Shown: positions 18,041 to 64,000 of the stretch, piece after piece
Layout of the letters: every line of letters starts with the position of its first letter
Position numbering within the stretch: the first letter of the stretch is position 1
NCBI GenBank assembly: GCA_937124585.1
Contig: CAKZKT010000147.1
Coordinates: 46,104-110,103 of the forward strand
DNA length: 64,000 nucleotides
Origin: an uncultured Anaerolineae bacterium
Lineage (GTDB): Bacteria > Chloroflexota > Anaerolineae > CG2-30-64-16
Direction of reading: 5' to 3'
Notes under the pieces: model-generated
Databases searched by the model: none
The model's input: the letters and a program-made list of their open reading frames with translations, nothing else
What the model was told of the DNA's origin: nothing
Program-made: the position numbers and the translations under genes

Positions 18041-18124
18041 GCCAGCACATCGTGAAACGGCTGGCCTGTTTAGAGGTCAGCCGCATAAGTAGCCAGTGGA
18101 TCAGTGCTTTTCTGGGAGGAATGC

Positions 18125-20185
18125 ATGTCAAAGCCAATTCGAATGGATCGTAGAACGTTCCTGAAGACGAGCGCGCTGGCCGTCGCGGCGGCGGCTGCCA
18201 CGGCCTGCGCCGGACAACCTGCGCCGGCGCCAGCTGCCCCCACGGCGGCGCCGGCACAGAAACCGGTCGAACCGACCAAGGCCCCTGAACCGACCAAGGC
18301 CCCTGCCGCCCCGGTTGTCGCGCAATTCAACGAAGCGCCGATGCTGGCTGAGCTGGTGAAAGCGGGCAAGCTACCTCCGGTTGAGAAGCGTCTGCCGCCT
18401 GCGCCAGAGGTCGTCAAGCCAATTCAAGAAGTCGGACAGTACGGCGGGACCATGCGCATTGCCATCGGTAACGCCAACGCCCTCTTTGGCGATGGTCAGG
18501 CGGTCATCGGCACCGAGCTTGTACTGCGCATCGCGCGCGACTTCAACAGCATCACCGGCGGCCTCTTCGAGAAGTGGGAATTCAACAACGACGCTACTGA
18601 ACAGACCCTCTACCTGCGCAAAGGGCTGCGCTGGTCAGACGGAGAGCCCATGACCACGCAGGACTGCCTGTTCGACTATGTAGACTGCAAGCTGGACAAG
18701 GAGTTAAGCCCGGCCGGCCCAGGCTCTGCCTGGCGTGCCGGCAAAGACCGTGTGCCGATGGAGATGATCGCGGTAGACGACTATACCCTCAAATTGAAGT
18801 TCGCAGCGCCTAAGCCGCTGGTCATTCTCGACCAGGCATTCTACAGCGGCTGCCAATATGGAGGGATGTTCGCACCGAAACATTATGGCAAGCAGTTCCA
18901 CCCCAAATACGCGGATCCCGCCGCGCTCGACAAAGCGGTCAAAGATGCGAAGTTCGAGAAATGGACGCAGCTCTTCAGCGCCAAGATGTTGGTCGGCTCG
19001 ACCATCCCGGCCGCTGTAGGGCTGCCAGGGATGACGGCCTTCGTGCGCACCGGCGATGACCCCGCCTATCACGTGTATGAACGCAATCCGTACTACTGGA
19101 AGGTAGACACTGCCGGCAATCAGCTGCCCTACATAGACAAGGTGATCGTCAACATCATCGCCGACAAGGAACTGCTCACCACCCGCTTACTGGCCGGTGA
19201 TCTCGACTTCTCGGGCCACAGCACCTATCTGAAGAACATGGAGCTTTACAAGAAGGCCCAGACCGAAAAGAAGGTGAAGATCTACCTGTGGGACTCGACG
19301 CTCGTTTCGGCGGTGGTGATTTTCCCCAACATGACGCCGAAAGACAAGGAGCTGCGGGAATTCTTCCAAAAGAAGAACGTGCGCATTGCCCTGTCCATCG
19401 CCCTGAACCGCAAGGAGATCAACGACGTGGTACACTTCGGCCTGGGCGAGCCGCGCCAGATCGCGTTGTGGCCCACTTCGATCTACTACCAGAAGGGAGA
19501 CGAATCGCACTACGTCGAATACGACCCCAAGAAGGCCAATGAGCTGCTCGACCAAGAGGGCTACACGCAGAGAGACGCTCAGGGCTATCGCCTGTTCCCA
19601 TCCGGCAAGCGCATCGGCTGGATCGGCGAGTTCGATCCGGAGCAGGGCGATATCCCGCCCACGTTGGAGCTATGCATCCAGTACTGGAAGGAGATCGGCA
19701 TCGAGTTCACCATCAAACCGATCAACCGCACTCTGCTTAACCAGCGCTGGGTCGCGAACGAACAGATGATGACCTTCTGGCAAGGCGACATCGGCTCGGA
19801 CATCGTCTTCCCCCTGGCGCCCAAGATCATGCACGGCAACTCCGAAGGCAATGCCCTGGGCTGGAGCCGCGCCTGGGAAGTCTGGATGCGCAACAAAGGC
19901 CAATTCCCCGATCTCGAAGAGGAGCCGCCCGCCTGGGTAAAGGCGCAGTACGAGGACTGGGACAAGCTCCATAGCACGTTGGACGAGAAGGAGCGCGTTA
20001 AGATCATGCGCGGGCTCTTCGATCGCTTCTACGAATACCTGCCCTGCTTCGGCACGGTCGGCGTGCCGCAGGCGGTAATCATGAAGCCGGAGATCACCAA
20101 CGTGCCCGAAAAGGGAGTCTGGGGCTACGGCACCATTCGCGCCGTGCCGGTCAATCCGGAACAGTTCTTCTTCAAACGGGCATAA
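18125..20185 (+). CDS. Family 5 ABC substrate-binding lipoprotein (Tat signal), probably oligosaccharide-binding
   Basis: DRRTFLK twin-Arg motif, lipobox ATAC, Pro/Ala linker, GKLPPVEKRLP, WSDGEP and RNPYYWKVD..GNQLPYID. Confidence 0.92.
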   Translation: MSKPIRMDRRTFLKTSALAVAAAAATACAGQPAPAPAAPTAAPAQKPVEPTKAPEPTKAPAAPVVAQFNEAPMLAELVKAGKLPPVEKRLPPAPEVVKPIQEVGQYGGTMRIAIGNANALFGDGQAVIGTELVLRIARDFNSITGGLFEKWEFNNDATEQTLYLRKGLRWSDGEPMTTQDCLFDYVDCKLDKELSPAGPGSAWRAGKDRVPMEMIAVDDYTLKLKFAAPKPLVILDQAFYSGCQYGGMFAPKHYGKQFHPKYADPAALDKAVKDAKFEKWTQLFSAKMLVGSTIPAAVGLPGMTAFVRTGDDPAYHVYERNPYYWKVDTAGNQLPYIDKVIVNIIADKELLTTRLLAGDLDFSGHSTYLKNMELYKKAQTEKKVKIYLWDSTLVSAVVIFPNMTPKDKELREFFQKKNVRIALSIALNRKEINDVVHFGLGEPRQIALWPTSIYYQKGDESHYVEYDPKKANELLDQEGYTQRDAQGYRLFPSGKRIGWIGEFDPEQGDIPPTLELCIQYWKEIGIEFTIKPINRTLLNQRWVANEQMMTFWQGDIGSDIVFPLAPKIMHGNSEGNALGWSRAWEVWMRNKGQFPDLEEEPPAWVKAQYEDWDKLHSTLDEKERVKIMRGLFDRFYEYLPCFGTVGVPQAVIMKPEITNVPEKGVWGYGTIRAVPVNPEQFFFKRA

Positions 20186-20291
20186 ACCCAGAAGACATAC
20201 CTGGCCCTTGCCAGGCCATTCATCTCATAGCCCGTTTCGTTCCGATCAGGGGACCGATCATCGCAGGCAATGTGACATTGTCCCGCATCCT

Positions 20292-20326
20292 TGCTATCTC
20301 CCGCTCTGGCGGAGCGGGAGATAGCA
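20292..20326 (+). other. Strong intergenic hairpin downstream of the SBP gene
   Basis: Perfect 15-bp stem TGCTATCTCCCGCTC-TGGCG-GAGCGGGAGATAGCA with no U-tract. Confidence 0.7.
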
Positions 20327-20378
20327 GGCGCGTCGCTTTCCGTTCCCCGATGGGAAATGAGAAAATGAGGATGTTTGC

Positions 20379-21545
20379 ATGGCATACAAAAAACCATCTT
20401 TGCGGCCGCTTACCTCCGGGCCGAAATATCATTGGTTTGGCTACTACGATAAACTACAGTTCGATCCCACCGGCCGCTATGTCCTCGGCATGGAGGTGGA
20501 TTTCGAGCATCGCTCACCCCGACCCAATGACGTGATCAAAGTGGGCATGATTGACCTGCGCAATGGTGATCGCTGGATCGAGCTGGGAGAAAGCCGCGCC
20601 TGGTGCTGGCAACAGGGCTGTATGCTCCAGTGGCTGCCTGGCTCTCTCAGCGAGGTCATCTGGAACGATCGCATAGACGATACGTTCGTCTGTCACATCC
20701 TGGACATCTACACCGGCCGCAAACGCACAATCGGCGCGCCGATCTACACCATCAGCCCGGACGGCAAGCGGGCAGTGACGCCAGACTTCCGCCGCATCAA
20801 CGATTGCCGGCCCGGCTACGGTTATGCCGGCGTTCCCGATCCCTATCGTGATCAGCTCGCACCGGAACAGACCGGCATCTGGCATGTTGACCTGATTACA
20901 GGTGTCAGCAAACTGATCATCTCCTTTGCGCAGATCGCCGCCATTCCTTCACGGCTCGGCGATCTCACCATCATGAAGCACTGGTTCAACCATCTGCTGT
21001 GGGGACCAACGAACGACCGTTTCGAGTTTCTCAACCGCTGGCGAGGACCCGGTACGGTGGGGCTTCCCACGCGCATGTTCACGGCCCGCCCCGACGGCAG
21101 CGACATCCGCATCGTGGACGGTTACGGCAAGATGTCGCATTTCATCTGGCGGGACCCCCAACATATCCTGGGCTGGTCGTGGCACCCATCGCACGGCGAT
21201 GCTTTCTATCTCTATACGGATGACGGCAGCGAACAGCCTGCACCGGTCGGCCTGGGGGTGATGACCGAAAATGGCCACTGCACCTACCTGCCGGGCAACA
21301 AGTGGATTCTGAACGACACCTATCCAGATGCGCAGCGGCTGCAGCACCTGTACCTCTACCATGTTCCGACCGGACAAAAGGTGCCCCTGGCCGATCTGTA
21401 CACCGGCCCCGAGTACGTCGGAGAGTGGCGCTGCGACCTTCATCCCCGTTTCAGTCCGGACGGTCGGCTGGTGACGATTGATTCCAATCATGAAGGAAAA
21501 GGGCGTCAGATCTATCTGCTGGATATCAGCGAGATCGTTGGATGA
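20379..21545 (+). CDS. Beta-propeller protein (oligogalacturonate lyase/TolB-like)
   Basis: Motifs HWFGYYD, WFNH, GHCTY and DLHPRFSPDG. No signal peptide. Confidence 0.65.
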   Translation: MAYKKPSLRPLTSGPKYHWFGYYDKLQFDPTGRYVLGMEVDFEHRSPRPNDVIKVGMIDLRNGDRWIELGESRAWCWQQGCMLQWLPGSLSEVIWNDRIDDTFVCHILDIYTGRKRTIGAPIYTISPDGKRAVTPDFRRINDCRPGYGYAGVPDPYRDQLAPEQTGIWHVDLITGVSKLIISFAQIAAIPSRLGDLTIMKHWFNHLLWGPTNDRFEFLNRWRGPGTVGLPTRMFTARPDGSDIRIVDGYGKMSHFIWRDPQHILGWSWHPSHGDAFYLYTDDGSEQPAPVGLGVMTENGHCTYLPGNKWILNDTYPDAQRLQHLYLYHVPTGQKVPLADLYTGPEYVGEWRCDLHPRFSPDGRLVTIDSNHEGKGRQIYLLDISEIVG

Positions 21546-21638
21546 GGCCGACCGGCGCCTTCCACGCATCCGCCGACGGTCATGTGGCAAGCCCGCTCGA
21601 TCCGACCCCGGGCGGGCCGTCCTCTCAGAGGCAGTTCT

Positions 21639-22631
21639 ATGCGCACGTTTGTCCTGAAACGCATTCTCCAAGCCATTCCGATCCTGTTCGGCATCTCGAT
21701 CATTGCATTTGCGATCATCCAGTTGCCGCCAGGCGATTACCTGACAACTTATGTCAATAATTTGCGCTCGCAAGGCGATGTTATCAGCGATGAGCAGGTC
21801 AAGGCGCTCGAAGAACAGTACGGCTTGAATCAGCCGCTCTACCTGCAATACTGGAAATGGATTACCAACTTCGTGCGGGGCGAGATGGGGCAATCATTCT
21901 ATTGGAACAAACCGGTGCGCAGCCTGATCGGGGAACGTATCGCCCTCAGCATGTTGGTCTCCCTCTTCGCCCTGGTGCTCACCTATGCCATTGCCATCCC
22001 GATCGGTCTGATTTCGGCTACCCGCCAGTATTCCTTCGCAGACAATCTTTTCACCGTGTTGGCGTTCATCGGTGTCGGCTTGCCCTCCTTCCTGGTTGCA
22101 CTGGTGTTGATGTACTTCGGCAATCGCTATCTGGGCCTGAGCGCCGGCGGCCTCTTCTCTATCGAATACATGGACGCGCCCTGGAGTCTCGGCCGTGTGC
22201 TTGACCTGCTCAAACACATGATCCTGCCGGCATTGATCATTGGTATCTCCGGGACAGCCGGCACGATCCGCGTGATGCGCGCCACGACCCTGGACGAGTT
22301 GAGCCGGCCTTATGTCGAGGCGGCGCGAGCGCGCGGCCTGCGGGAGATGGTCGCCGTGCTGCGTTATCCGGTGCGCGTGGCGCTTAACCCAATCATGAGC
22401 ACAATCGGCTGGCAGCTGCCGGCGCTCGTCTCCGGCGAGACGCTCGTCTCAATGGTGCTCGGTCTGCCTACCTGCGGCCCGCTCCTCTACACCGCACTGA
22501 TCACTCAGGACATGTATCTCGCGGCCAGTTTTATCATGATTCTGAGCACGCTCACTGTGGCCGGCACCCTGCTTTCAGATATCCTGCTGGCCTGGATTGA
22601 CCCCCGTATCCGGTTCGGAGGCATTCAATAG
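21639..22631 (+). CDS. Opp/Dpp-type ABC permease (B subunit)
   Basis: Motifs LPPGDY, YGLNQP..QYWKW and EAA loop YVEAARARG. Confidence 0.92.
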   Translation: MRTFVLKRILQAIPILFGISIIAFAIIQLPPGDYLTTYVNNLRSQGDVISDEQVKALEEQYGLNQPLYLQYWKWITNFVRGEMGQSFYWNKPVRSLIGERIALSMLVSLFALVLTYAIAIPIGLISATRQYSFADNLFTVLAFIGVGLPSFLVALVLMYFGNRYLGLSAGGLFSIEYMDAPWSLGRVLDLLKHMILPALIIGISGTAGTIRVMRATTLDELSRPYVEAARARGLREMVAVLRYPVRVALNPIMSTIGWQLPALVSGETLVSMVLGLPTCGPLLYTALITQDMYLAASFIMILSTLTVAGTLLSDILLAWIDPRIRFGGIQ

Positions 22632-22632
22632 C

Positions 22633-23817
22633 ATGGAAGTCCCAGCTTCTTCCCCGCAGAACACACCTCCCTCTGCTCCGCCCATGCAGGCGCAAGAGGA
22701 TCAGCTGATCGCCGAAAGCGGCGCCCGTTCGATCCGCCTGCTGTCGCATCGGCAGCTTGTGTTGATGCGCTTTCGCAAGAACCGACTCGCCTTGATCGGA
22801 CTGGCCACCTTGATCCTGCTCTATTTGATGGCGATCTTCTGCGAGTTCATCGCACCCTATGACCCCAACCGACGATTTCAGGGCAATGTCCATGCGCCGC
22901 CGACGCGGCTTCACTTGCGCACCCCAGAAGGCGCCTGGAGCATGCCTTTCTTCTATCGAGTAGAACGCAAAACGGATCCCTCTACTTTCGAGCGCGTCTA
23001 CGCTGAAGACACACGCCAGCGCTATTCGCTCAGGCTTTTTGTGCGCGGTGATCCCTACGAGATGTGGGGCCTGATTCCGCTCGACGTCCATCTTTTCGGA
23101 AGCAGCGACCCAAGCGTGCCGCTTTTCCTGATGGGGGCCGACGCCATGGGACGTGACCTGCTCAGCCGCATCGTGTACGGCAGCCGCATCTCGCTCTCGA
23201 TCGGCCTGGTCGGTGTCTGCACCAGTCTGCTGATCGGTCTGATCCTGGGCGGTGTGTCGGGCTACTACGGAGGTATGGTGGACGACATCGTGCAACGTCT
23301 CATCGAACTGATCCGCTCGATCCCCACGGTGCCCCTCTGGATGGGCCTGGCGGCCGCGCTGCCGCCGAGCTGGCCGCAGCTGCGCGTCTATCTGGGCATC
23401 ACAATCATCCTGTCATTTGTCGGTTGGACCACCCTGGCACGCGTCATCCGAGGGAAATTCCTGGCGCTGCGCGAGGAAGATTATGTGCTGGCCGCGCTGC
23501 AGGCCGGCGCCCAACCCTTTTTCGTCATTCGGGAGCACTTGTTGCCCTCCTTCATGAGCTACATCCTGGTGCACCTGACGCTGGCGATACCGGGCATGAT
23601 CATCGGCGAAACCGGCCTGAGCTTCCTCGGCCTAGGCCTGGTGGCGCCGACGATCAGCTGGGGCGTGTTGCTCAAAGACGCACAAAAGGTGCAAGAGGTC
23701 GCCCTCCACCCGTGGATCCTGATCCCTGCGATCTTTGTACTCATCACCGTAATGGCCTTCAACTTCTTCGGCGATGGGTTGCGGGATGCGGCAGACCCAT
23801 ATAGCCAGCGGACGTGA
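22633..23817 (+). CDS. Opp/Dpp-type ABC permease (C subunit)
   Basis: Motifs GADAMGRDLLSRIVYGSRISL, LSFLGLG and GDGLRDAADP. Confidence 0.92.
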   Translation: MEVPASSPQNTPPSAPPMQAQEDQLIAESGARSIRLLSHRQLVLMRFRKNRLALIGLATLILLYLMAIFCEFIAPYDPNRRFQGNVHAPPTRLHLRTPEGAWSMPFFYRVERKTDPSTFERVYAEDTRQRYSLRLFVRGDPYEMWGLIPLDVHLFGSSDPSVPLFLMGADAMGRDLLSRIVYGSRISLSIGLVGVCTSLLIGLILGGVSGYYGGMVDDIVQRLIELIRSIPTVPLWMGLAAALPPSWPQLRVYLGITIILSFVGWTTLARVIRGKFLALREEDYVLAALQAGAQPFFVIREHLLPSFMSYILVHLTLAIPGMIIGETGLSFLGLGLVAPTISWGVLLKDAQKVQEVALHPWILIPAIFVLITVMAFNFFGDGLRDAADPYSQRT

Positions 23818-23905
23818 AACGTAAAGCGTGATGTGAAAGTCACGCCATCAACCGGCGCAGAGTGGTATTTTCATGAAGTCACGTTTCACGCAGGGTAGTA
23901 ACGAT

Positions 23906-24922
23906 ATGCCGAATAACAACATTCTCATCGAAGTCAAAGAGCTGCGCACCTACTTCTACCTCACTGAGGGGGTGGTGCGGGCGGTAGATGGCGTCAGTTT
24001 CAGCCTGGAGCGTGGTCGGACGCTGGGCGTAGTGGGCGAAAGCGGCTGTGGCAAGAGCGTGACGGCCCGCTCTATCATGAATATGGTGCGCAAACCCGGC
24101 CGTACGGTAGGCGGTGAGGTCCTGTATCATCGCCGGAATGGCGATGATACCACAGAAGAGATCATTGACCTGTTGAAGCTGGAGCCGATGGGCGATGAAA
24201 TGCGGGCGATCCGTGGCGGCGAGTTTGCCATGATCTTCCAGGAACCGCGCGCCTCCCTCAGCCCGGTCCATACCATCGGCACCCAGATCGTGGAGGCGAT
24301 TCGCCTGCACCGGCCGATGACCAAAGCCCAGGCGCGCGAACACGGCATCGAGATGCTGCGCCGCGTGAAGATCCCTCGCCCGGAGCAGATCATTGATGCT
24401 TACCCGCATCAGCTCAGCGGCGGCATGTGCCAGCGCGCCATGATTGCGCTGGCCCTGGCCTGTCAGCCCGCGCTGCTCATCGCCGACGAACCTACCACAG
24501 CGCTGGATGTCACCACCGAAGCCCAGATACTGGAGCTGATGCGAGAGCTCCAGGCGACCTTCGAGACCTCGATCATGTACATCACCCATAACCTGGCCGT
24601 CGTCGCCGAGATCGCGCGTGATGTGATGGTCATGTATATGGGCAAAGATGTCGAATTCGCTCCGGTAGATGCCATCTTCCACGAGCCGAAGCATCCCTAT
24701 ACCATTGCCCTGCTCTCTTCGATCCCTCGAATTGACGTCGAGCGCGACATGTTGGCGACCATGGCCGGGACAGTGCCCGATCCCTACGCGCTGCCGAAGG
24801 GCTGCCCGTTTCATCCGCGCTGTCCGTCGCGTCTGCCGGTGTGCAGCCAAGATATCGAGGTGCCTTACGTGTTTTTCGACAAAGGACATCGGGTGCGTTG
24901 TCATTTGTACACAGCGAAATGA
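23906..24922 (+). CDS. Opp/Dpp-type ABC ATPase (D subunit)
   Basis: Motifs GESGCGKS, LSGGMCQR, DEPTTALD and C-terminal CPFHPRC. Confidence 0.93.
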   Translation: MPNNNILIEVKELRTYFYLTEGVVRAVDGVSFSLERGRTLGVVGESGCGKSVTARSIMNMVRKPGRTVGGEVLYHRRNGDDTTEEIIDLLKLEPMGDEMRAIRGGEFAMIFQEPRASLSPVHTIGTQIVEAIRLHRPMTKAQAREHGIEMLRRVKIPRPEQIIDAYPHQLSGGMCQRAMIALALACQPALLIADEPTTALDVTTEAQILELMRELQATFETSIMYITHNLAVVAEIARDVMVMYMGKDVEFAPVDAIFHEPKHPYTIALLSSIPRIDVERDMLATMAGTVPDPYALPKGCPFHPRCPSRLPVCSQDIEVPYVFFDKGHRVRCHLYTAK

Positions 24923-25020
24923 GCAAATCGGCAAATCAACAGGCAACCAGATGAGCATGCCGTATAGTTCACGTTGCACGTTTCATATTGTGTCCATCTC
25001 CTTTCCAGGGAGCTGAGTGC

Positions 25021-26070
25021 ATGACCCAGGCATCAATTGAGGCGAGTGCCAGCGCGCCATTGCTTGAAGTGCGCAATCTCAAGAAACACTTCCCCATCAC
25101 GAAAGGGCTGTTCTCGGCCGTGCATGGCTACGTCAAAGCGGTAGACGGCGTGAGTTTCGCTATCCCACGCGGCCAAGTCTTGGGCCTGGTGGGCGAGAGC
25201 GGCTGCGGCAAGACGACGGTGGGCCGGCTGATCATGCGCCTGTACCGGCCCACGGCAGGCCAGATCCTGGTGCGGCTGGGCAAAGACAACGAGCCGGCCA
25301 CCGATATCGCCAATTTGGACCACACCGCATTGATGCCCTATCGCCGTCAGATGCAGATGATCTTTCAGGACCCCTACACGTCGCTCAACCCCCGTAAAAC
25401 GATCCTGGAAATCGTCAGCGAGCCGCTGCGTATTCACGGCATCGCTTCCGGCAAAGCGTTGCAGAGCCGGGTAGAGGAGCTGCTGGAGCTGGTCGGGCTG
25501 CGCGCCGAGTACGTCATGCGCTATCCGCACGCATTCAGCGGCGGACAACGCCAGCGCATCGGGATCGCGCGTGCCCTGGCGCTCAACCCACAGTTCATCG
25601 TCGCCGATGAACCGGTCTCGGCGTTAGATGTGTCAGTTCAGGCCCAAGTGCTCAACCTGATGCGTTCGTTGCAACGCAAATTCGGCCTGACCTATCTGTT
25701 CATCTCGCATGACCTGAGCGTAGTCAAGCACATTAGCGACCGCATCGCTGTGATGTATGTCGGTAATCTGGTCGAGACGGCCAGCACGAAGGAGCTCTTC
25801 GTCAGGCCGCTCCACCCGTACACCGAGGCGTTGCTTTCATCAGTCCCGAAGCCCGATCCCAGGCTGCAGCGACGACGCAAGATTCCGCAGGGCGAGGTGG
25901 CTGATCCAGCGCATCCACCGCCCGGCTGTCGCTTCCACCCACGTTGCCCGTATGCGCAAACTCGTTGCGCCCAGGAAGAACCGGTGCTACGCGAGTTCCC
26001 TGGCGGTCGCACCGTGGCATGTCATTACGCCGAGCAACTGACGCTGACCGGAGCGCTGGAGGCCGCATGA
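25021..26070 (+). CDS. Opp/Dpp-type ABC ATPase (F subunit)
   Basis: Motifs [24 protein letters not shown] and CRFHPRC. Confidence 0.93.
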
Positions 26071-45810: not shown

Positions 45811-46911
45811 TCAGGCCGCCAGCGCCGCCATTGCCGCGCGGAAATCGCGGCGACCCAATCCCAGGCGAAAATGATCGCCGGCGACCTCGAACACATCGCC
45901 CGGCAAGATCATCGTATCGTACTGCTCCAGGGCGCGGCGACAGAACTCGGCGACCGGGGAGCCGGCGATGAACTGCGGAAAGGCGACCGGCCCGGCCTGC
46001 GGCGGCAGCCAGCGAAAACGGTCGGGGTGGCCGGCGAAGAACTGCTCGGCCAGCGTCAGATTCGCGCGGATGATGGCCAGGTTGCGCGCCGTGATCTGCT
46101 CGGCGCGACGCAGCGCCATGAGGCCCAGGATCTCGGCCGGCGCGCTGTTGCAGATCGTGGTGTAATCCCGAAACGCCTGCGCGCGCGCCAGGAACGACCG
46201 ATCGTGGGTGGCCAGCCAGCCGATGCGCAGGCCGGGCAGGCCGAACGCCTTCGACAGGCCCCCCAGCGCAATGCCCCGCTCGTACACGTCGGCGACCGAG
46301 GGCAGTCGACGCCCGGGATCGTACTCCAGCAGACGATACATCTCGTCTGCAAAGACGACCAGGTTGTGTTGCCGCGCCAGGTCAAGGATGGTGTTCAGCT
46401 CATCGCGGCCGGGCAGATAGCCCGTCGGATTGTGCGGGAAGTTAATCACGAGCAGCCGCGTGGCCGGGGTGATATGCTGCTCCAGCGCTGCCAGGTCGAG
46501 CCGCCAGCCCGACGCGTCGGGCTGCAGCGTCCAGCGTGTCGTCCGCGCGCCGAGCGCGCTTGCCACCTCGTACAGCGACTGATAGCCCGGAAAGGTGACG
46601 ATGACTCCGTCGCCCGGCGCCACCAGCACGTTCATGGCGATGAAGATCAGCTCTTCGGGCGCAGCGATCAGCACCTCGTCGGCTGCGATGCCCTCGTAGA
46701 GCGCGGCTGCCGCGCTGCGCAGCAACGGATGCCCTGCCGACTCCGTGTAGCCCAGCTTCAGATCGCGCCACAATGCCAGCGACTCATCATCTGCCAGCGC
46801 CAGCAGCTCTGCCAGCGTCAGCGCCTCGCAATCGGAGGCGCTGAGCAGATAGCGCGCGCTGAACTCATGGGCGGCGAAAAAGCGTTCGAGCTTGAACTCG
46901 CGCAGCTGCAT
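45811..46911 (-). CDS. Class I/II PLP-dependent aminotransferase
   Basis: Motifs NFPHNPTG, DEMYR and SKAFGLPGLRIGW. Confidence 0.9.
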   Translation of the reverse strand: MQLREFKLERFFAAHEFSARYLLSASDCEALTLAELLALADDESLALWRDLKLGYTESAGHPLLRSAAAALYEGIAADEVLIAAPEELIFIAMNVLVAPGDGVIVTFPGYQSLYEVASALGARTTRWTLQPDASGWRLDLAALEQHITPATRLLVINFPHNPTGYLPGRDELNTILDLARQHNLVVFADEMYRLLEYDPGRRLPSVADVYERGIALGGLSKAFGLPGLRIGWLATHDRSFLARAQAFRDYTTICNSAPAEILGLMALRRAEQITARNLAIIRANLTLAEQFFAGHPDRFRWLPPQAGPVAFPQFIAGSPVAEFCRRALEQYDTMILPGDVFEVAGDHFRLGLGRRDFRAAMAALAA

Positions 46912-53845: not shown

Positions 53846-56824
<2,979 letters not shown>

Positions 56825-56876: not shown

Positions 56877-58256
56877 ATGCCCCATCCTGCCCTGCCCGAA
56901 ACCCGTACTCCTTCCCGCCGGTCCGACCTGGCAACCATGCTCGCCGCGGTGCGCGACATGCATTGCATCTCCGTCGTCGGCGTCAGCAACCTGGGCAAAT
57001 CGAGCCTGCTGCGCGCCCTGGCCGAGACCATCTCGCAGCGCGACCGCGACGATGACGGGACCGCCTGCTATCTGCCCGTCTACATTGACTTCAACCGCAT
57101 GCTCGACATGACCGAGCAGGCATTCTACGAGCTGATCCTGCGCTGCGCCCTGGATGCCCTGGACGCCGCGACGACTGACGAGGTCGCGGCCAGGGTGCGC
57201 GCGGCGTACAACGTCCTGATTAAACCAAACAGCAGCTTCGAAGTGCCACTCAGCTTCGCCCAGGCCATGGCCACCATCGGCGACCTGCTGCCCCAGAAAG
57301 TGGTGTTCCTGTTCGACGAGCTGGATGGGCCGCTGACGGGCATTGACGGCCGCGTCTTCCTCAACCTGCGCGCCTTGAAAGACAAACACTGGCAGGGCCT
57401 GACGTATGTCACCGCCACCAACCGCCGGCTGGAGCAAATCAACCGAGACAGCAACGTGGCCGAGTTCGCCGAGCTGTTCGCGCGCTACCTCCTCTATGTC
57501 TCGCCGCTGGACGAAGAGGAGACCGCGCGCTTCGCCGCCGAATTTGCCGCCAAAGAAGACGTCACCTTCAGCGAGCAGGACGTGGCATTTCTCCGGCTAT
57601 GGACCGGCGGCCATCCCGGCCTGCTGGAAACGGTCTGCCATCTGTTGGGCGCGCTGACGGGTCGGCCGCTGCGCGATCCGACGCAGGACTGGATCATTCA
57701 CCGTCGCGCGGCCGAGCTCATCCCCCTGGAGCCGAGCATCCAGATCGAATGTCGCCGCATCTGGGACGACCTGACCCCACAGGAGCAGGATGCGCTGCTC
57801 TCGCTCTATCGTTCGCCCGCCGAAAAGGACCCACCGGGCATGGATGCCGTCATCGCGCAATACCTGGTGATCGGCCAGGGCCCGGAACGCCGCATTTTCG
57901 CCCACGCCTTTGCCGATTTCGTGCAGCGTCAGCACATCACCCGCCGGTCTGGCCCGCACGTGGGCCTGCACGTGGACGCCGACAGCGGCGAGGTCTGGGT
58001 CAACGGTGTGCAGGCGCCGACCCTCACCAACCTGGAATACCGCCTGCTGCTCCTGCTCTATGGCCGGCTCGGTAAAATCGTCACCAAATACGACGTGGTC
58101 GAGGCGGTCTGGGGCGAAGACTACATAGACGACGTAGACGACGCGCGCATCGAGAAGCTCATCAGCCGGTTACGCCAGAAGATCGAACCGGACGTCGCCA
58201 ATCCGCGCTACCTCATCACCGTGCGCGGCCGCGGCTACAAACTCGTGAACGCTTAA
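56877..58256 (+). CDS. STAND-like P-loop ATPase fused to an OmpR-type winged-helix DNA-binding domain
   Basis: Walker A GVSNLGKSS, Walker B VFLFDELD and GGHP. C-terminus LT..EY.LL...ISRLRQKIE.D...PRYLITVRGRGYKL. No receiver domain. Confidence 0.85.
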   Translation: MPHPALPETRTPSRRSDLATMLAAVRDMHCISVVGVSNLGKSSLLRALAETISQRDRDDDGTACYLPVYIDFNRMLDMTEQAFYELILRCALDALDAATTDEVAARVRAAYNVLIKPNSSFEVPLSFAQAMATIGDLLPQKVVFLFDELDGPLTGIDGRVFLNLRALKDKHWQGLTYVTATNRRLEQINRDSNVAEFAELFARYLLYVSPLDEEETARFAAEFAAKEDVTFSEQDVAFLRLWTGGHPGLLETVCHLLGALTGRPLRDPTQDWIIHRRAAELIPLEPSIQIECRRIWDDLTPQEQDALLSLYRSPAEKDPPGMDAVIAQYLVIGQGPERRIFAHAFADFVQRQHITRRSGPHVGLHVDADSGEVWVNGVQAPTLTNLEYRLLLLLYGRLGKIVTKYDVVEAVWGEDYIDDVDDARIEKLISRLRQKIEPDVANPRYLITVRGRGYKLVNA

Positions 58257-58258
58257 TC

Positions 58259-58314
58259 CTGTCAGTTCACCGTCGGCTGTCTGTCAAGCGACCACACAGC
58301 GGTCGTGCTAATAT
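58259..58314 (+). promoter_or_regulatory. Three 11-bp-periodic direct repeats plus an extended -10 upstream of pspA1
   Basis: CTGTCA (58259), CCGTCG (58270) and CTGTCA (58281); TGcTAATAT at 58306-58314. Confidence 0.6.
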
Positions 58315-58394
58315 CTGGTCGTCGAAGCCCAAAACCCTGCCGGACCGCGAATCCCCCAGGGTTTGCCACTCATCATCTGTTCAGGAGGACACTC

Positions 58395-59081
58395 ATGGCA
58401 TCCTTGCTCGACAAGGTCAATACCCTGATTTCGGCGAATCTGCACTGGCTGGTAGACCAGGCGCTGAAACAAAACTCACTGGCTGTCATCCAGCAATACA
58501 TCCGCGAAGTCGAAGACAACCTGGCCGATCTGACCGATGCCGTGGCGACTGTCGGCGGCAACGTCAAGACGATCCGGCGCAAGCGCGACGAACTGCAAGC
58601 CAAAGCGGACGAACTCGACCGCAACATTGACATCTTCCTGCGCGAGAGCCGGGATGACCTGGCCGCGGCCGCGCAGAGCAAGCTCAACTCCACGCAGCGG
58701 CTGCTCGAGACCTACAATCAGCAACTGGAGCAGATGCAGCGGGAGTACCAGAGCCTGATGGACGCGCGGCTCAAACTCGAAGCCAAGCTCACCACCATCA
58801 AACAGGAGCGCGAGGAACTGGAGGCACTGCTCGAGCTGGCGAAGTCGAAAGAGCTGACGGCCAAGGCCATCAAGTCGCTGGACGACCTGTCGGGCGTCGG
58901 CGATGCAGATGTGGCCCGCATCGCGGACTCGATTCGCGCCCGGCTGGACAAGGCCTCGGCGCAGACCGAGATGCGCGCGCAGACCCTCGATCGGCAGATG
59001 GACGAAATCCTCAACAAGCAGGAGCTGGACGCCCAGCTGGCCGCCCGCAAGGCCCGGCTGGGGCTGACGGCCCGCCAGTAG
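58395..59081 (+). CDS. PspA/IM30 (bacterial ESCRT-III) family protein 1
   Basis: Amphipathic N-terminus MASLLDKVNTLISANLHWLVD, long coiled coil, DDLAAAA hinge and C-terminal ELDAQLAARKARLG. ATG follows AGGAGG. Confidence 0.88.
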   Translation: MASLLDKVNTLISANLHWLVDQALKQNSLAVIQQYIREVEDNLADLTDAVATVGGNVKTIRRKRDELQAKADELDRNIDIFLRESRDDLAAAAQSKLNSTQRLLETYNQQLEQMQREYQSLMDARLKLEAKLTTIKQEREELEALLELAKSKELTAKAIKSLDDLSGVGDADVARIADSIRARLDKASAQTEMRAQTLDRQMDEILNKQELDAQLAARKARLGLTARQ

Positions 59082-59141
59082 CGAGGACGACATCCGCCGA
59101 GGGTGGGCGATCCCGCAGATCAGACACACCGGAGGCGTCCC

Positions 59142-59822
59142 ATGACATCCCTGTTGGAAAAGGTTCAGACCCTGATTGCGGCCGATCTGAACCGGCTCGT
59201 AGACCGCGCCCTGCAATCGAATGAGCCGGCGCTCTTCCAGCATCACCTGCGCGAACTGCAGCGCATCCAGGCCGAAGTCAATGAAGAGATGCTCAGCGCG
59301 CAGGTCGAGCTGAACCGGCTGCGCAAGCGGAGCGAGGAGCAGCTGGCCCTGGTGGCCAAACAAGACGCGGAAGTGGACCAGCTATTGCAGGCCGGCCTGC
59401 ATGAAGACGCACTGGCCGCCCAGGAACGCGTGAACAATTCCCGCATGATCGCCGCGCAGCTGGCCGAGCAAACGGCCCGACTGGAGGCCGAATATGCGCG
59501 CGTCGCGGAGACGAAGGCCCAACTCGACGCGCGGCTCGCCCTCATGATCCAGAGCGAGCCACGGGTGCAGGCAGCGAGCGGCCTGGCGCGCGCCAAGGAA
59601 CTGACGGCCCAGGCGCTGCGCTCGCTGGAAGACCTGGAAAGCGCCGGCGATCCCGATGTCGCGCACACGATCGGCGCGATTCGCGCACGGCTGGCCGAAG
59701 CCGAGGCGCAACTGGCGCAGCTCGAGGCACGCGGCCTGGCTCGCGGCGAAACCCCAGAGGCACTGAAACGCAAGGAGCTCGAGGCGCAACTGGAAGCACG
59801 CAAGGCACGGCTGGGGCTATAG
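59142..59822 (+). CDS. PspA/IM30 family protein 2
   Basis: Paralogue of the preceding gene: MTSLLEKVQTLIAADLNRLVD...ELEAQLEARKARLGL. ATG follows GGAGG. Confidence 0.82.
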   Translation: MTSLLEKVQTLIAADLNRLVDRALQSNEPALFQHHLRELQRIQAEVNEEMLSAQVELNRLRKRSEEQLALVAKQDAEVDQLLQAGLHEDALAAQERVNNSRMIAAQLAEQTARLEAEYARVAETKAQLDARLALMIQSEPRVQAASGLARAKELTAQALRSLEDLESAGDPDVAHTIGAIRARLAEAEAQLAQLEARGLARGETPEALKRKELEAQLEARKARLGL

Positions 59823-59889
59823 CCACGTCGGCGTTCGGTGCTGCGTTCCATTGAAGCGTTGCAACGTGCAAACGTAGAAGGAGAAAGGC

Positions 59890-61236
59890 ATGAACCTGGC
59901 TCCGATTCTCGTGACGCTGGGGGGCGGGCTGTTGGCGCTCATCCTGGCGATCTATTTCTGGATGTCCGCCAGCCGCGGCGGCCGGCGGACGCAGGCCGTC
60001 TTCTTCACCATCCTCGCCGTCGTCCTGTTGATCGTCGCGGCCGGGCTCGGCTGGCAGCGGCTGGGCCCCAATGCCTCGTCGCAGCAACTGGTCGTCGTCC
60101 CGCGCGGGCCGGTGCAGGTGCGCGTACTTGTGGCCCTGCCCGTCGAGCCGTGGGTGCGCGAGGCCGCGCGACAGTTCAACGAAAAGGGCCTGCGCCAGGA
60201 CGGTCAGCCGATCGAAGTGCAGGTGACGGCCATGGACGGTCTGGCCGCGTTGGGCAAGTTCGACCGCAACGAGTTCGGCGCGCTGACCGCCAACCAGACG
60301 CGCGATCAGCTCTCGGCGCAGGAGCGCCAAAAGCTCGAAACCACCTTCCCGACCGTCTGGATCCCGGACAGCCGCTACCTGGTCGAACTGGCCAACGCTC
60401 TCTACAAAGAGCGCCTCAGCCGCGATGTATTCCTGACCGACGGCGAGTATCGCGCCCGGCCAATTGCCGTCTCCCTCTTCACGTGGGGGCTCTACAGCAG
60501 CCGCGCTGCCGCGCTGGAGAAGAAGTTCGGCAAAATTGACTGGCAGGTGATCCACGATGCAGCCATCGCCAAAGGCGGCTGGCCCGAGCTGGGCGGCGAC
60601 CCGGCGTGGGGCTTCTTCAAGCTCGTTGTGCCCAACCCGCGACGCAACGTCGGCGGCCTGGCTGCCATGATCGCCGCGGCGGGCGAATACTACGACAAGC
60701 CCAACATCTCGGTCGCCGAAGTGACCGACCCGCAATTCCAGAAGTGGCTGAAGGAGCTGATGGGCGCACTGACCGATGTCGGCGGCGCCAGCGCCTACAC
60801 CGCTGAAGACTTTGCCCTGTTCGGCTACTCGGTTGGCGACGGCGGCCAGCTGCTGGAGAGCGACCTGCTGAACAACATGGCCGGCATCCAGAAACGCTGG
60901 GCCGATCCGCTGGTGATCCGCTACCCGAAATACGTCACCTGGTTCGACTTCCCGTTCTCGATCTGGATGGGGCCCGAGACAACCGCTGCGGAGAAGAACG
61001 CCGCGCTCCAGTTCGAACAGTTCCTGCTCTCAACCGAGATGCAGAAACTGGCGGTGGCGCAGGGCCTGCGGCCGGTCAACAATCAGGTCAGCATCACGGC
61101 AGGCGACAATCTGTTCGTGCAATGGCAGTCCCAGGGCATCGAGGCGGTCGTGCCGCGCACAACGCGCATGGCAACCCCCAGCCGCGATGTGTTGCAGGCG
61201 TTGCTGCGCTGGTTTGATCTGAATGTGGGGAAATGA
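59890..61236 (+). CDS. Membrane-anchored (2 TM) solute-binding-fold protein
   Basis: Two N-terminal TMs; PTVWIPDS, ..QGLRP and other motifs shared with the SBP part of the next gene. Confidence 0.75.
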   Translation: MNLAPILVTLGGGLLALILAIYFWMSASRGGRRTQAVFFTILAVVLLIVAAGLGWQRLGPNASSQQLVVVPRGPVQVRVLVALPVEPWVREAARQFNEKGLRQDGQPIEVQVTAMDGLAALGKFDRNEFGALTANQTRDQLSAQERQKLETTFPTVWIPDSRYLVELANALYKERLSRDVFLTDGEYRARPIAVSLFTWGLYSSRAAALEKKFGKIDWQVIHDAAIAKGGWPELGGDPAWGFFKLVVPNPRRNVGGLAAMIAAAGEYYDKPNISVAEVTDPQFQKWLKELMGALTDVGGASAYTAEDFALFGYSVGDGGQLLESDLLNNMAGIQKRWADPLVIRYPKYVTWFDFPFSIWMGPETTAAEKNAALQFEQFLLSTEMQKLAVAQGLRPVNNQVSITAGDNLFVQWQSQGIEAVVPRTTRMATPSRDVLQALLRWFDLNVGK

Positions 61237-61257
61237 GGCCGGGAGAAGGAGTGGGCG

Positions 61258-62991
61258 ATGAGCAGGCGAAAGAAGAACCAGCAGCAGGTCGCTACCAGGC
61301 TCCTCGTGGGGATCCTCGGCATACTTCTGGTCATGTGCGTTGTGCTGGGGATCACGGGCATCTCGGTACTGATCGAATCGTTCCGACAACCAGGTCAGCC
61401 CGCGGCCAGCCCTGAGGTCAACACACACAATGCCACGCTGACGATTGCCGTCTCGCCGGAGAAGGCTGTGCTGCTCAAGAACCTGGCCGACAAATTCAAC
61501 GCCAGAAATCTGCGCACGCCCGATCGCCAGCCGATGCGCATCGAGCTGATCGAACTCAAACCGGACGAGATGGTCGAAAAAGCATTGGCCGGCCAGGCCC
61601 CCTTCCAGGCGCTCACGCCGGACTCGTCGCTGTGGCTCGACCAGCTCAACTACCGGTATGCCCAGGCGCAGCAGACAGAGCCCGGTGCGATTCCGCCCCG
61701 CCTCACCGGCGATGGCGTGCGCTACGCCGTGACGCCCATCGTCATCGCGGCCTGGGAAAACAGCGCCCGCAGCCTCGGCTGGCCGGACAAAGCCGTCGGG
61801 TGGACGGCTCTGCAAACGCGCGCACAGCAAGACGCCAACTTCAAATGGAACCATCCTAGCACCGCACACGCCAGCGGCTTGCTGGCGACGCTGGCCGAAT
61901 TCTACGCGGGCGCCGGCGTCCAGCGCGGGCTGACGGCCGAAATGGCCCAAGACCCCAAAACGCTCGAATTCGTCAGCAGCATCGAGAAGACGGTGCGCTA
62001 CTACGGCGAGGGCGAACTGACCGTCATCCAGCGAGCCGCGCAAGAGGGGCCGAAGTATCTGGACGCCTTTGTCACGCCCGAACAGTTGCTGGTGGCCTTC
62101 AACACCGGCGTGTTCGGCAAACCGCCTGCCCGTCTCATCGCCCTCTATCCGGCCGAAGGCACGCTCTGGGCCGATCACCCGCTGGCGCTGCTAGAGATGC
62201 CCGAGCCGACCGCCAACCAGCGGCGCACGTTCCAGGCATTTCGGGAATATCTCGCTTCGGCCGAGGTCCAAAAGGAGATCCTGCGCGCCGGCTATCGGCC
62301 CGCCGACCTGAGCCTTTCCCTGACCGGGCCCGACTCGCCGCTTACGGCGGCCAACGGCGTGGACCCGATGCAGCCGAAGACGACGCTACAGCTGCCATCA
62401 CCGGATGTCGTCGTGGTGGTACAAAACGCATGGGCGGTAACCAAGCGCCGGGCCAATGTCATGCTGGTGGTGGACACCTCCGGTTCGATGCGCGGCGAAA
62501 AACTGGCCAACATGCAGATCGCCCTGCGCACCTTCCTGACGCAGATCCCCAGCGACCAGGAACGGATCGGCCTTGTCGAGTTCAACACCACGGTGACGAG
62601 CATCATCGAGCTGGATACCCTGGCGAAGAACCGCGGCGCGCTGCTGCGCGAGATTGACGGCCTGCAGGCAAACGGCAACACGGCGTTCCTGGATGCCGTA
62701 CGCACCGCCTACCGCCGGCTGCAGCAGAGCAGCGACGGCGAACGCATCAACGCCATCGTGGCGATGACCGATGGCCGCGAAAATGCCTCGGTCATCACCC
62801 TCCAGCAGCTCGTCGCCGAGATACGTGCCGGCAATCAGAAGACGCCGGTGATCATCTTCTCGGTCGCCTACGGCAGCGACGCGGACATGAAAATACTGGA
62901 GGCGCTCGCCGAAGCCAGTGGCGGCCAGGTCCGCATCGGCACACCGGAGACGATTCGGGAGCTGTATAAGATCTTGTCGAGTTACTTCTGA
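61258..62991 (+). CDS. Membrane-anchored solute-binding domain plus vWA domain protein
   Basis: N-terminal TM; SBP motifs PDSSLW, YPAEGTLWADHP and GYRP; intact MIDAS DTSGS...T...TDG. Confidence 0.88.
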   Translation: MSRRKKNQQQVATRLLVGILGILLVMCVVLGITGISVLIESFRQPGQPAASPEVNTHNATLTIAVSPEKAVLLKNLADKFNARNLRTPDRQPMRIELIELKPDEMVEKALAGQAPFQALTPDSSLWLDQLNYRYAQAQQTEPGAIPPRLTGDGVRYAVTPIVIAAWENSARSLGWPDKAVGWTALQTRAQQDANFKWNHPSTAHASGLLATLAEFYAGAGVQRGLTAEMAQDPKTLEFVSSIEKTVRYYGEGELTVIQRAAQEGPKYLDAFVTPEQLLVAFNTGVFGKPPARLIALYPAEGTLWADHPLALLEMPEPTANQRRTFQAFREYLASAEVQKEILRAGYRPADLSLSLTGPDSPLTAANGVDPMQPKTTLQLPSPDVVVVVQNAWAVTKRRANVMLVVDTSGSMRGEKLANMQIALRTFLTQIPSDQERIGLVEFNTTVTSIIELDTLAKNRGALLREIDGLQANGNTAFLDAVRTAYRRLQQSSDGERINAIVAMTDGRENASVITLQQLVAEIRAGNQKTPVIIFSVAYGSDADMKILEALAEASGGQVRIGTPETIRELYKILSSYF

Positions 62992-63065
62992 GCATCACAC
63001 GAAATCGTGATGCGCTAAACGCCAGGTGTCTGACCCACCACGGTTCACGCTTTACACACAATCAT

Positions 63066-63947
63066 ATGCCAAACACCGATTCCATCCTCGATCGCATTAG
63101 ACAGGAAGCCGAGCGGGCACTGCTCATGAACGCCGTTTTCCGCTGGGAAAGCGCCGTAGTCATCGGCGGCACCGTGCTGCTGAGCATCTTCTTCAACGAA
63201 TGGCTGCCCGGCTGGCCGGTGTGGGCATGGCCGCTCATCGGTGTGATCGCCGAGGCCGCCGTGATCATCTCCAGCCTCACCGACAAAGGCGAAATGCAGA
63301 AGGTGATGGAGTCGCTCTTTCGCGAGAAATACAACACGGTCGGCATCCGTGACCGCGAGCTGCGCGCCAAGCTCGAAGAGGCCGAGGAATATCGCCGGCG
63401 CATCCAGGAAGTGGTGACCCAGCAGAAAAGCGGCGTCTTGCGCGACCGCCTGGTCGCCACCACCGCCCAGGTTTACGACTGGATCGCCAATATGGTCACC
63501 CTGGCACGGCGCATTGACACCTACCGGGCCGACACGATCATCCGCCGCGATCAGGCCGGCGTGCCGAAGGAGATCGGCGAGCTGGAACGGCGTTTGGCGA
63601 ACGAACGGAACCCGCAGGTGCGCGCCCAGATCGCCACCACGCTGGAATCGAAGCGCCAGTTTGCCGCCAACTTGCAGGAGCTAGCCGACCGCATGGTGCG
63701 CGCCGATCTCCAGCTCGACCATTCTCTGGCTGCGCTGGGCACCGTCTACTCGCAGCTGCTACTCATCGGCAGCAAAGACGTGGACTCGGATCGGGCCGAT
63801 CGCCTGCGCGAAGACATCCGCGGCGAAGTGCTGGCGCTGCAGGACCTGATGGAATCGCTGAACGAGGTCTACGGCATCGCCGTCGAAGGCGAACCATTCG
63901 CGCGCTCCACGGCCACCCAGCGCCAGCGCGCCGCGGCCCGACGCTAG
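63066..63947 (+). CDS. 2-TM membrane protein with long coiled coil
   Basis: Two hydrophobic helices at about aa 28-70, then a charged helical region. Confidence 0.75.
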   Translation: MPNTDSILDRIRQEAERALLMNAVFRWESAVVIGGTVLLSIFFNEWLPGWPVWAWPLIGVIAEAAVIISSLTDKGEMQKVMESLFREKYNTVGIRDRELRAKLEEAEEYRRRIQEVVTQQKSGVLRDRLVATTAQVYDWIANMVTLARRIDTYRADTIIRRDQAGVPKEIGELERRLANERNPQVRAQIATTLESKRQFAANLQELADRMVRADLQLDHSLAALGTVYSQLLLIGSKDVDSDRADRLREDIRGEVLALQDLMESLNEVYGIAVEGEPFARSTATQRQRAAARR

Positions 63948-63990
63948 GGCCCTGCCTGTCCAGCGGGCCAAACAACCATCGAGGTGTGTC

Positions 63991-64000
63991 ATGAAGTATC
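63991..64000 (+). CDS. Start of a further operon gene (truncated by window)
   Basis: GAGGTG RBS followed by ATG AAG TAT. Confidence 0.45.

Follow-up and report, generated by a model that had tools for sequence, protein, structure and literature searches.

A predicted PspA-centred envelope-maintenance operon of Anaerolineae, with a STAND-type regulator, a triple-repeat operator and exported orphan binding proteins

PspA and Vipp1 are the bacterial homologues of ESCRT-III, and to our knowledge their recruitment and regulation outside Proteobacteria, Bacillota and mycobacteria are largely unknown. What, then, are two pspA genes of an uncultured Anaerolineae bacterium (Chloroflexota) doing between the gene of a DNA-binding nucleoside triphosphatase (NTPase) and those of two exported solute-binding proteins (SBPs) without a transporter? 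The cluster in question occupies positions 56877-63947 on the plus strand of contig CAKZKT010000147.1 as numbered in the window, by which we mean the whole 64,000-nucleotide stretch that was analysed, from position 46104 to 110103 of that contig. On balance we favour the reading that it is a Psp (PspA/ESCRT-III) envelope-maintenance operon, in which a STAND-type activator would act on upstream repeats, the SBPs would form a surface module and a protein with two transmembrane helices (2-TM protein) would be the membrane partner of PspA. An initial annotation, made from the sequence letters, had outlined six co-oriented genes with a seventh starting at the window edge, and had suggested that the SBPs act as sensors or scaffolds at the surface and are linked by way of the 2-TM protein with a PspA polymer. 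The open reading frames (ORFs), together with Pfam and NCBIfam, confirm six co-oriented, closely spaced genes in the order [secA] - STAND-wHTH - pspA1 - pspA2 - SBP - SBP-vWA - 2-TM protein (- LivJ-like SBP), where wHTH stands for winged helix-turn-helix; only the starts of the two PspA genes are moved, to 58395 and 59142. The features are as follows.

53846-56824, plus strand: secA, with SecA_DEAD, P-loop_SecA, SecA_SW and SEC-C domains; the upstream neighbour, given for context only.
56877-58256, plus strand: STAND NTPase-wHTH protein, 459 aa; Trans_reg_C and nSTAND1 (Pfam).
58259-58290, plus strand: operator of three GTC-core direct repeats, with GTC at 58261, 58272 and 58283.
58309-58314, plus strand: -10-like hexamer TAATAT of the predicted pspA1 promoter, from a reading of the sequence and the spacing in relatives.
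58395-59081 (ORF from 58305), plus strand: PspA1, 228 aa; PF04012 match and orthologue starts.
59142-59822 (ORF from 59103), plus strand: PspA2, 226 aa; identity to PspA1 and phmmer matches.
59890-61236, plus strand: membrane-anchored orphan SBP, 448 aa; fold match and Pfam matches of orthologues.
61258-62991, plus strand: membrane-anchored SBP_bac_11-VWA fusion (SBP-vWA), 577 aa; Pfam SBP_bac_11 and VWA.
63066-63947, plus strand: 2-TM helical-bundle protein, 293 aa; AlphaFold2 model, outside Pfam coverage.
63991-64000, plus strand, continuing past the window: LivJ-like SBP, the seventh gene; open frame and lipobox, the gene being cut by the contig end.

The genes are separated by short intergenic gaps, and no plus-strand terminator-like site lies between the cluster genes. 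How far does the arrangement extend beyond this one genome? We examined 40 regions from coded genomes and 80 named loci, and scored their ORFs with hidden Markov models built from the cluster proteins. The 80 named loci are all from Chloroflexota (Anaerolineae/Anaerolineales, Caldilineae, Ardenticatenia and Candidatus Amarolinea) and overlap in part with the coded genomes; loci are called eligible for a gene where their flank is long enough to hold it. Within the window's family the complete set of six, in unchanged order, is found in every one of the 11 loci fetched, and secA precedes it in 10 of these. In the 8 loci from other families of the class, PspA, SBP, SBP-vWA and the 2-TM protein are always present, accompanied by the regulator in 6. 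Counted gene by gene, PspA is present in 63/63 eligible loci, the stand-alone SBP in 71/72 and the 2-TM protein in 67/68, so that the gene-neighbourhood check proposed in the initial annotation reveals a co-conserved set. Of the 48 loci whose flank is long enough, 27 have secA upstream, and this synteny persists when another regulator stands between secA and pspA; in Escherichia coli, secretion stress is linked to PspA. As judged from sequence comparison, the arrangement is far beyond chance, since the gene order recurs in 11/11 family loci and in most of the 80 loci, and these comparisons mark the cluster as a conserved, vertically inherited unit with the genome's only recognisable PspA.

Which protein would switch such a unit on? 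The product of 56877-58256 ends in an OmpR/PhoB-type winged helix (Trans_reg_C, 67.7 bits against a cut-off of 26.2) and matches nSTAND1 marginally (28.2 bits against a cut-off of 27.1), with AAA_16 (30.0 against 32.6) and NACHT remaining below threshold. The Walker A residues G35, N38 and G40-K41-S42 and the Walker B pair D147-E148 are invariant in 12/12 sequences, as is the C-terminal wHTH, and this combination of a P-loop, Walker A and B motifs and a DNA-binding effector domain places the protein among the STAND NTPases. An OmpR/PhoB two-component response regulator was considered and ruled out: Pfam and NCBIfam detect no receiver domain in the protein (no Response_reg match), and its C-terminal 75-95 residues alone match such models. 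A repeat-type sensor domain was likewise not detected in the regulator.

The regulator gene is present in 34/52 eligible loci, and the DNA between it and pspA1 contains a distinct repeat element. Alignment of the regulator-pspA1 intergenic regions reveals three GTC-core direct repeats with an exact 11-bp period (consensus nTGTCAGnnnnnnGTCnGnnGnnnGTCAnGCn), a pattern that occurs in 35/37 STAND-to-pspA intergenic regions as against a mean of 0.03/37 in 500 shuffles. A TAnnnT -10-like hexamer follows the G of the third GTC by 26 nt in 23/35 sites, and by 25-27 nt in 28/35, and from this spacing the third repeat is predicted to lie over the -35 position. Tandem direct repeats about one helical turn apart that overlap the -35 are the classic layout for OmpR/PhoB-type winged helices; in the pho box, TGTCA recurs every 11 bp. 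Scored with a position weight matrix (PWM) from which the window's site had been left out, the window operator attains 37.0 bits, whereas the runner-up in the 4.83-Mb genome, with both strands scanned, attains 15.6 bits. A site of at least 18 bits is found upstream of pspA1 in 40/42 loci with the regulator gene versus 1/19 loci without it, the sole regulator-less locus with an operator being one whose contig ends 1.4 kb upstream; no further site of at least 18 bits occurs in any of the 80 loci. In one Caldilineales locus (L147), AT-rich short tandem repeats (~1900-2072, upstream of pspA1) stand in place of the operator, yet the regulator gene is present. By these comparisons the operator is unique in the genome, lies at the -35 of the predicted pspA1 promoter and co-varies with the STAND-wHTH gene; this tie between the ATPase-wHTH gene and the pspA promoter is new here and was missed by the initial annotation. 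From the invariant Walker A/B motifs and wHTH, the layout of the operator and its co-variation with the regulator gene, we take the STAND-wHTH protein to be the predicted activator dedicated to the cluster operon. If true, dedicated pspA activators of the NTPase type would be known from two independent cases.

What kind of PspA does the operon encode? PspA1 belongs to the PspA/IM30 family (PF04012, PspA_IM30; 58.0 bits against a cut-off of 33.9) and is the sole PF04012 match in the genome, which is 99.8% complete. Its likely start is the ATG at 58395, with an AGGAGG at 58383-58388, 7 nt upstream, and its orthologues begin MASLL and span 225-231 aa. PspA2, with its likely start at 59142, is 38% identical to PspA1 and is recovered in phmmer cross-matches at 1e-33 to 1e-45. 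PspA2 itself has no Pfam match; its orthologues score 21-37.5 bits to PF04012, two of them above the cut-off (37.5 and 34.0). It is present in 17/59 eligible loci and is thus lineage-specific, the gene being duplicated in the window's own family. Among 61 relatives, SBP-vWA and PspA occur together in 46, SBP-vWA without PspA in 0, PspA without SBP-vWA in 4 and neither in 11, which we read as a pattern and not as a statistic because the genomes are related. Three of the four PspA-only genomes contain a different, canonical PspA (E ~1e-47 to 1e-50 versus 1e-15 to 1e-22 for the cluster type), and the fourth is a 76%-complete member of the window's family. Canonical PspA proteins, scoring 160-170 bits against Pfam, were seen in some relatives of the class (G245, G247, G255 and G253), and G253 holds both a canonical and a low-scoring, cluster-type PspA. 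Such scores suggest that two distinct PspA clades exist in the class.

The exported proteins pose the next question, namely whether they are transporter subunits. The stand-alone SBP (59890-61236) matches SBP_bac_8 weakly itself, and 12/18 of its orthologues match SBP_bac_11. Its AlphaFold2 model (pLDDT 86.8) consists of predicted N-terminal TM helices and an extracytoplasmic class-II periplasmic binding protein domain that matches 171 PDB chains at E<=0.001 in Foldseek. Sulfate-binding proteins are on top (1sbp, E 1.2e-9, TM-score 0.67, then 5um2 and 6ddn), and the sequence profile agrees (6ddn 1.9e-5, 1sbp 5.6e-4). The protein is a paralogue of the SBP domain of SBP-vWA, which matches SBP_bac_11 at 45.9 bits (cut-off 25) and VWA at 71 bits; both proteins are thus class-II periplasmic binding proteins, SBP-vWA by the Pfam model and the stand-alone SBP by its fold and its orthologues. 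The metal ion-dependent adhesion site (MIDAS) of SBP-vWA is complete, D406-x-S408-G-S410, T475 and D505 being invariant in 22/22 homologues, and the domain can be assigned to the MIDAS-containing vWA domains. Positive charge and one TM helix mark its N-terminus, with a lipobox-like signal instead in 9/22 homologues. Homologues of SBP-vWA at 65-90% identity are abundant, and the gene occurs in 33/36 genomes of the window's family, 46/61 relatives and 31/201 genomes drawn from the phylum as a whole. The SBP-vWA copy of four less complete family genomes (G227:C18, G229:C6, G233:C28 and G203:C3) has in-frame TGA codons or is split; these interrupted copies could be pseudogenes, frameshifts or assembly errors.

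The seventh gene, starting at 63991, adds a third protein of this kind. It is an open frame of 185 aa that runs to the contig end, 545 nt beyond the window, and has an LLAGC lipobox typical of a lipoprotein-type SBP. It corresponds to L001:2492-3046 and clusters with orthologues (median 386 aa) in 44/62 eligible loci, and one orthologue (L076:10980-12185) matches Peripla_BP_6 at 8e-53. The product is accordingly a LivJ-like SBP, a third orphan without a permease or ATPase beside it. The genes that follow the cluster in relatives encode the LivJ-like SBP, a small protein and PIG-L, so that the normal ABC transporter that the initial annotation named as a possible downstream finding is not seen, the next gene being another orphan SBP. 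In several loci (e.g. L079:8276-9941) a conserved protein of ~130-145 aa with no Pfam match and then a PIG-L deacetylase were observed past the LivJ-like gene.

Could the SBPs, with the LivJ-like protein, nevertheless be ordinary subunits of importers encoded elsewhere, for example of an oxyanion ABC importer, with PspA buffering the membrane or being present incidentally? Sulfate-binding proteins are the closest structures by profile and by fold, SBP_bac_11 membership points the same way, and orphan SBP genes that serve distant permeases do exist. At the level of the locus, however, an ABC importer was ruled out, as no permease or ABC ATPase is encoded with the SBPs in 79/80 loci; an ORF with the ABC-ATPase signature (Walker A and LSGGQ) occurs in one locus only, 6.9 kb away. 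The claim of the initial annotation that the SBPs have no ABC partner in the window holds in this sense, but the window does contain one self-contained ABC system, of the Opp type and with its own SBP. It is a complete Opp/Dpp-type transporter at 18104-26070, 31 kb from the cluster, made up of a family-5 SBP (SBP_bac_5), a pair of permeases and a pair of ATPases that carry oligo_HPY. URO-D-like and family-4 glycosidase genes come after it, and it has no relation to the cluster. A MIDAS vWA fusion, an invariant pair of SBP and SBP-vWA and a dedicated 2-TM partner are moreover atypical of importer SBPs, and we regard the importer explanation as improbable.

The 2-TM protein is the last member of the cluster, and AlphaFold2 models it confidently (pLDDT 86.9, pTM 0.76): a short helix at the N-terminus is followed by two TM helices, which a short W/P-rich loop connects on the outer side, and by a ~220-residue cytoplasmic helical bundle. 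The two TM helices named in the initial annotation are thus retained, whereas its coiled coil is replaced by a compact helical bundle. No PDB structure matches the model at E<=0.001 in Foldseek, and the sequence profile retrieves coiled-coil noise only from PDB sequences (E>=0.18). The family is large, with 1732 representative clusters (50% identity) at E<=1e-3 and 878 at E<=1e-10. In 3/150 representatives the 2-TM domain lies C-terminal to Ser/Thr kinases, one of which also carries TCAD9, and it follows BTAD once and pentapeptide repeats once (fusions P0183, P0237, P0238, P0143 and P0233). These fusions suggest that the 2-TM domain serves as a module for signalling or docking close to the membrane. 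Among named clusters in the ESM Atlas, that of the Rv2743c (PspM) family comes closest to the 2-TM protein (score 0.91, 202/256 features shared), a likeness that we treat as a lead only.

A STAND NTPase together with a vWA protein also recalls conflict systems, and one might suppose an anti-phage system in which PspA is the membrane effector or protector. The marginal nSTAND1 match (28.2 vs 27.1 bits) would fit such a system, as would the 2-TM family member that is joined to a kinase and to TCAD9, a domain whose name derives from ternary conflict systems. PADLOC, however, has no match for 5/6 of the proteins and for PspA1 gives only coiled-coil matches to the SMC-like JetC and LmuB; the near-universal occurrence in the family (33/36 genomes) and the stable secA synteny do not fit the pattern of defence islands, the vWA domain is an exported one and not cytoplasmic, and a single operator points to one housekeeping-style regulon. 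An anti-phage role is thus highly improbable, and the toxin, phage and vesicle functions considered in the initial annotation find no support.

How, then, would the parts work together as an envelope-maintenance operon? A trigger would cause the STAND NTPase to oligomerise and to place its OmpR-type winged helices in tandem on the three repeats, whereby the operon would be activated; the STAND-wHTH protein would thus be a functional analogue of PspF and not a homologue. The likeliest trigger would be partner switching, with PspA restraining the STAND-wHTH protein until damage to the membrane recruits PspA there. This suggestion draws on the absence of a sensor repeat domain from the regulator and on analogy with the PspA-PspF pair of E. 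coli, in which PspA holds the activator and releases it by partner switching. On the outer face of the membrane, SBP and SBP-vWA, anchored by TM helices or lipoboxes, may serve as a surface module for contact with ligands or the wall rather than in transport. The 2-TM protein would be the membrane-spanning member of a triad with these two, older than the cluster, and is likely the membrane partner of PspA, in a role that would resemble that of PspM, LiaI or PspB/C.

Several observations weigh against this reading of the cluster. The STAND-wHTH gene is missing from 18/52 eligible loci, and in 15/80 loci a histidine kinase with several GAF domains is encoded upstream of pspA1, mostly between secA and pspA1, so that the pspA regulator is replaceable. 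The loci with such a kinase are mostly without the STAND-wHTH gene. Because 35 of the regulator-positive loci served to train the operator PWM, the near-absence of the operator in regulator-less loci is the informative part of that comparison. Kinship among the loci means that all counts overstate independence, and the sole sequencing run found to contain the stretch is a DNA run, with no RNA run found. Contact of PspA with the 2-TM protein or with the regulator is something that we infer; a complex prediction for the 2-TM protein and PspA1, run without controls, scored 0.00 and weighs on neither side. A relation of the 2-TM family to the PspA family was rejected (hhalign probability 0.35%), and three known families were tried for the 2-TM protein and did not apply. 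XpaC/Halogen_Hydrol (PF10112) reaches 24.9 bits against a gathering cut-off of 29.8, over residues 32-129 in the TM region; TelA (PF05816) has no match at E<=0.01 genome-wide or in 18 aligned members of the 2-TM family; and PspM (PF25587) has no match at the 2-TM gene at E<=1 and 0/150 among family representatives. The sub-threshold PF10112 is the sole Pfam family touching the 2-TM protein, recurring in 4/18 and 2/150 family members (E<=0.01), and the genome has no PF10112 (XpaC) match. Finally, SBP, SBP-vWA and a distant 2-TM relative occur together without PspA in other Chloroflexota classes, and on an actinomycete (Miltoncostaea) plasmid without PspA the gene after SBP-vWA is a 2-TM family member (E 3.7e-13), from which it follows that the function of the triad does not require PspA.

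As regards the kinases, multi-GAF proteins, with or without PAS domains, were seen in place of the STAND-wHTH gene at L106:987-5633 and L120:3147-6302, and adjoining it at L081:885-3740.

Is the triad then a stranger to PspA altogether? The genes might be co-transcribed and yet functionally separate, the triad forming an autonomous surface module for ligand sensing, adhesion or wall contact with no link to PspA. Consistent with such autonomy, the triad exists without PspA in other classes of the phylum, and in 6/20 distant loci genes for a histidine kinase (confirmed by Pfam in one case) and a CheY-like protein come after a triad that lacks PspA. The pairing of SBP-vWA with a 2-TM family member on the actinomycete plasmid and the fusion of the 2-TM domain to Ser/Thr kinases in 3/150 representatives point in the same direction. 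Against this stand strict adjacency and order with pspA in 63/63 eligible loci of several orders, the phyletic co-occurrence of 46 to 0, and a cluster-type PspA that is a distinct low-scoring clade and, in the 61 genomes searched, never occurs apart from the triad. We therefore hold functional separation to be unlikely, though it is the most probable of the alternatives. The six loci with the kinase (L034-L038 and L040, e.g. L036:6141-8055) come from one family of another class, where the triad precedes a 479-aa membrane kinase and a 119-aa CheY-like gene. The SBP_bac_11 and VWA architecture is also present in Actinomycetota, Pseudomonadota and Bacillota; in Thiodictyon the gene after SBP-vWA is a second SBP, and a Streptomyces homologue is annotated as a 'substrate-binding and VWA domain-containing protein'.

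Taken at the level of gene content, the triad is an older independent module, and PspA together with the triad is a lineage-specific union with interchangeable regulators. The triad, which exists without PspA, is therefore not a dedicated sensor of PspA; of the overall interpretation in the initial annotation the conserved Psp-associated unit stands, whereas a relay from the SBPs through the 2-TM protein to PspA is one that we infer. A bolder extension of the envelope-maintenance reading, offered tentatively and with less conviction, is that SBP, SBP-vWA and the 2-TM protein are a widespread, hitherto undescribed module for transmembrane signalling or anchoring that has become the membrane arm of the sole PspA/ESCRT-III system of the cell in Anaerolineae, with the 2-TM protein a remote counterpart of PspM and a PspA-held, non-homologous STAND-wHTH protein in the place of PspF. 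If the 2-TM protein is such a counterpart, PspM-type partners would not be confined to Actinobacteria. In any case the locus gives a major environmental lineage a well-defined Psp variant under strong conservation, its relatives being filamentous Anaerolineae of sludge, sediments and hot springs. It offers a testable regulator-operator pair, the STAND NTPase-wHTH protein and a genome-unique 32-bp triple repeat, and it links PspA to an uncharacterised exported SBP-vWA family and to a large 2-TM family without a Pfam model.

Does the cluster correspond to a system already described? Among its six proteins there is no Sigma54_activat, PspB or PspC match, which sets it apart from the classical Psp systems, and Pfam and NCBIfam give no LiaI/LiaF-TM, Toastrack or LiaRS-type matches, which sets it apart from the Lia system; a LiaH match is weak and at the level of a coiled coil (17.8 bits against a cut-off of 380). 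The statement of the initial annotation that pspB, pspC, pspF and liaRS-type partners are lacking thus holds for the six proteins, and PspC-domain genes are located on other contigs: two of them, at G000:C149:10412-10582 and G000:C124:37769-37933, lie away from the sole PspA. Its view that the cluster matches no characterised Psp/TelA operon is likewise upheld, as the genome has no TelA or XpaC match and PF25587 is negative. Nor did it recognise the combination as a described system, in agreement with the main text of two Psp surveys: that of PMC11237479 does not mention vWA, TelA, XpaC, NTPase, OmpR or SecA contexts, and that of PMC9239133 does not mention Chloroflexi, VWA or substrate-binding, although the supplementary tables of either may list such neighbourhoods. 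The single mention of Chloroflexi in the text consulted of one survey concerns PspA-PspAA fusions and is unrelated. In the wider literature, searched for PspA with vWA, SBP, Chloroflexi or Anaerolineae, for XpaC/TelA and for SBP_bac_11-VWA, a description of the cluster was not found; we thus regard it as a variant Psp operon not found described in the literature searched, the surveys being covered by their main text.

Four known systems share parts with it. The 'substrate-binding and VWA domain-containing proteins' of Actinomycetota, Pseudomonadota and Bacillota have the same SBP_bac_11 and VWA architecture; outside Chloroflexota no PspA or STAND-wHTH gene lies beside them in the three records examined, and no published function was found for them. 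The XpaC/TelA envelope-stress genes of Bacillota, of which xpaC-telA is reported to be linked to daptomycin resistance in E. faecium (PMC6811118), are similar in that the XpaC model touches the TM region of the 2-TM protein, and dissimilar in that the match is sub-threshold and the genome has none. Operons of PspA/Snf7 proteins with an AAA+ ATPase, an ABC ATPase, a permease and a PBPb-OmpA solute-binding protein are described in the main text of PMC11237479, and like the cluster they link PspA to an NTPase and a solute-binding-fold protein at the envelope; as described there, however, they have a full transporter and a classical AAA+ ATPase, whereas the cluster lacks both permease and ABC ATPase, its NTPase being a STAND protein with a DNA-binding domain and one of its SBPs carrying a vWA domain. 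The mycobacterial ClgR-PspA-PspM-PspN operon (Rv2745c-Rv2742c) is similar in architecture and position, with a 2-TM protein encoded after pspA. This partner, PspM, has no discernible homologues outside Actinobacteria according to the same main text, which describes no SBP or vWA genes in that operon (PMC11237479), while the cluster has both; the mycobacterial regulator ClgR has a cro-like HTH, whereas that of the cluster is a STAND-wHTH protein.

A further close parallel in organisation is PspF-PspABC of E. coli, where, as far as the survey's main text goes, a PspA effector likewise lies beside a dedicated NTPase-containing activator and one or more small membrane partners (PMC11237479). The cluster differs in having no PspB or PspC and in having two added exported SBP-fold proteins, one with a vWA domain. 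The activators differ as well: PspF is an NtrC-type AAA+ activator of sigma-54, whereas the predicted activator of the Anaerolineae cluster is a STAND NTPase with an OmpR-type wHTH and a promoter with three repeats.

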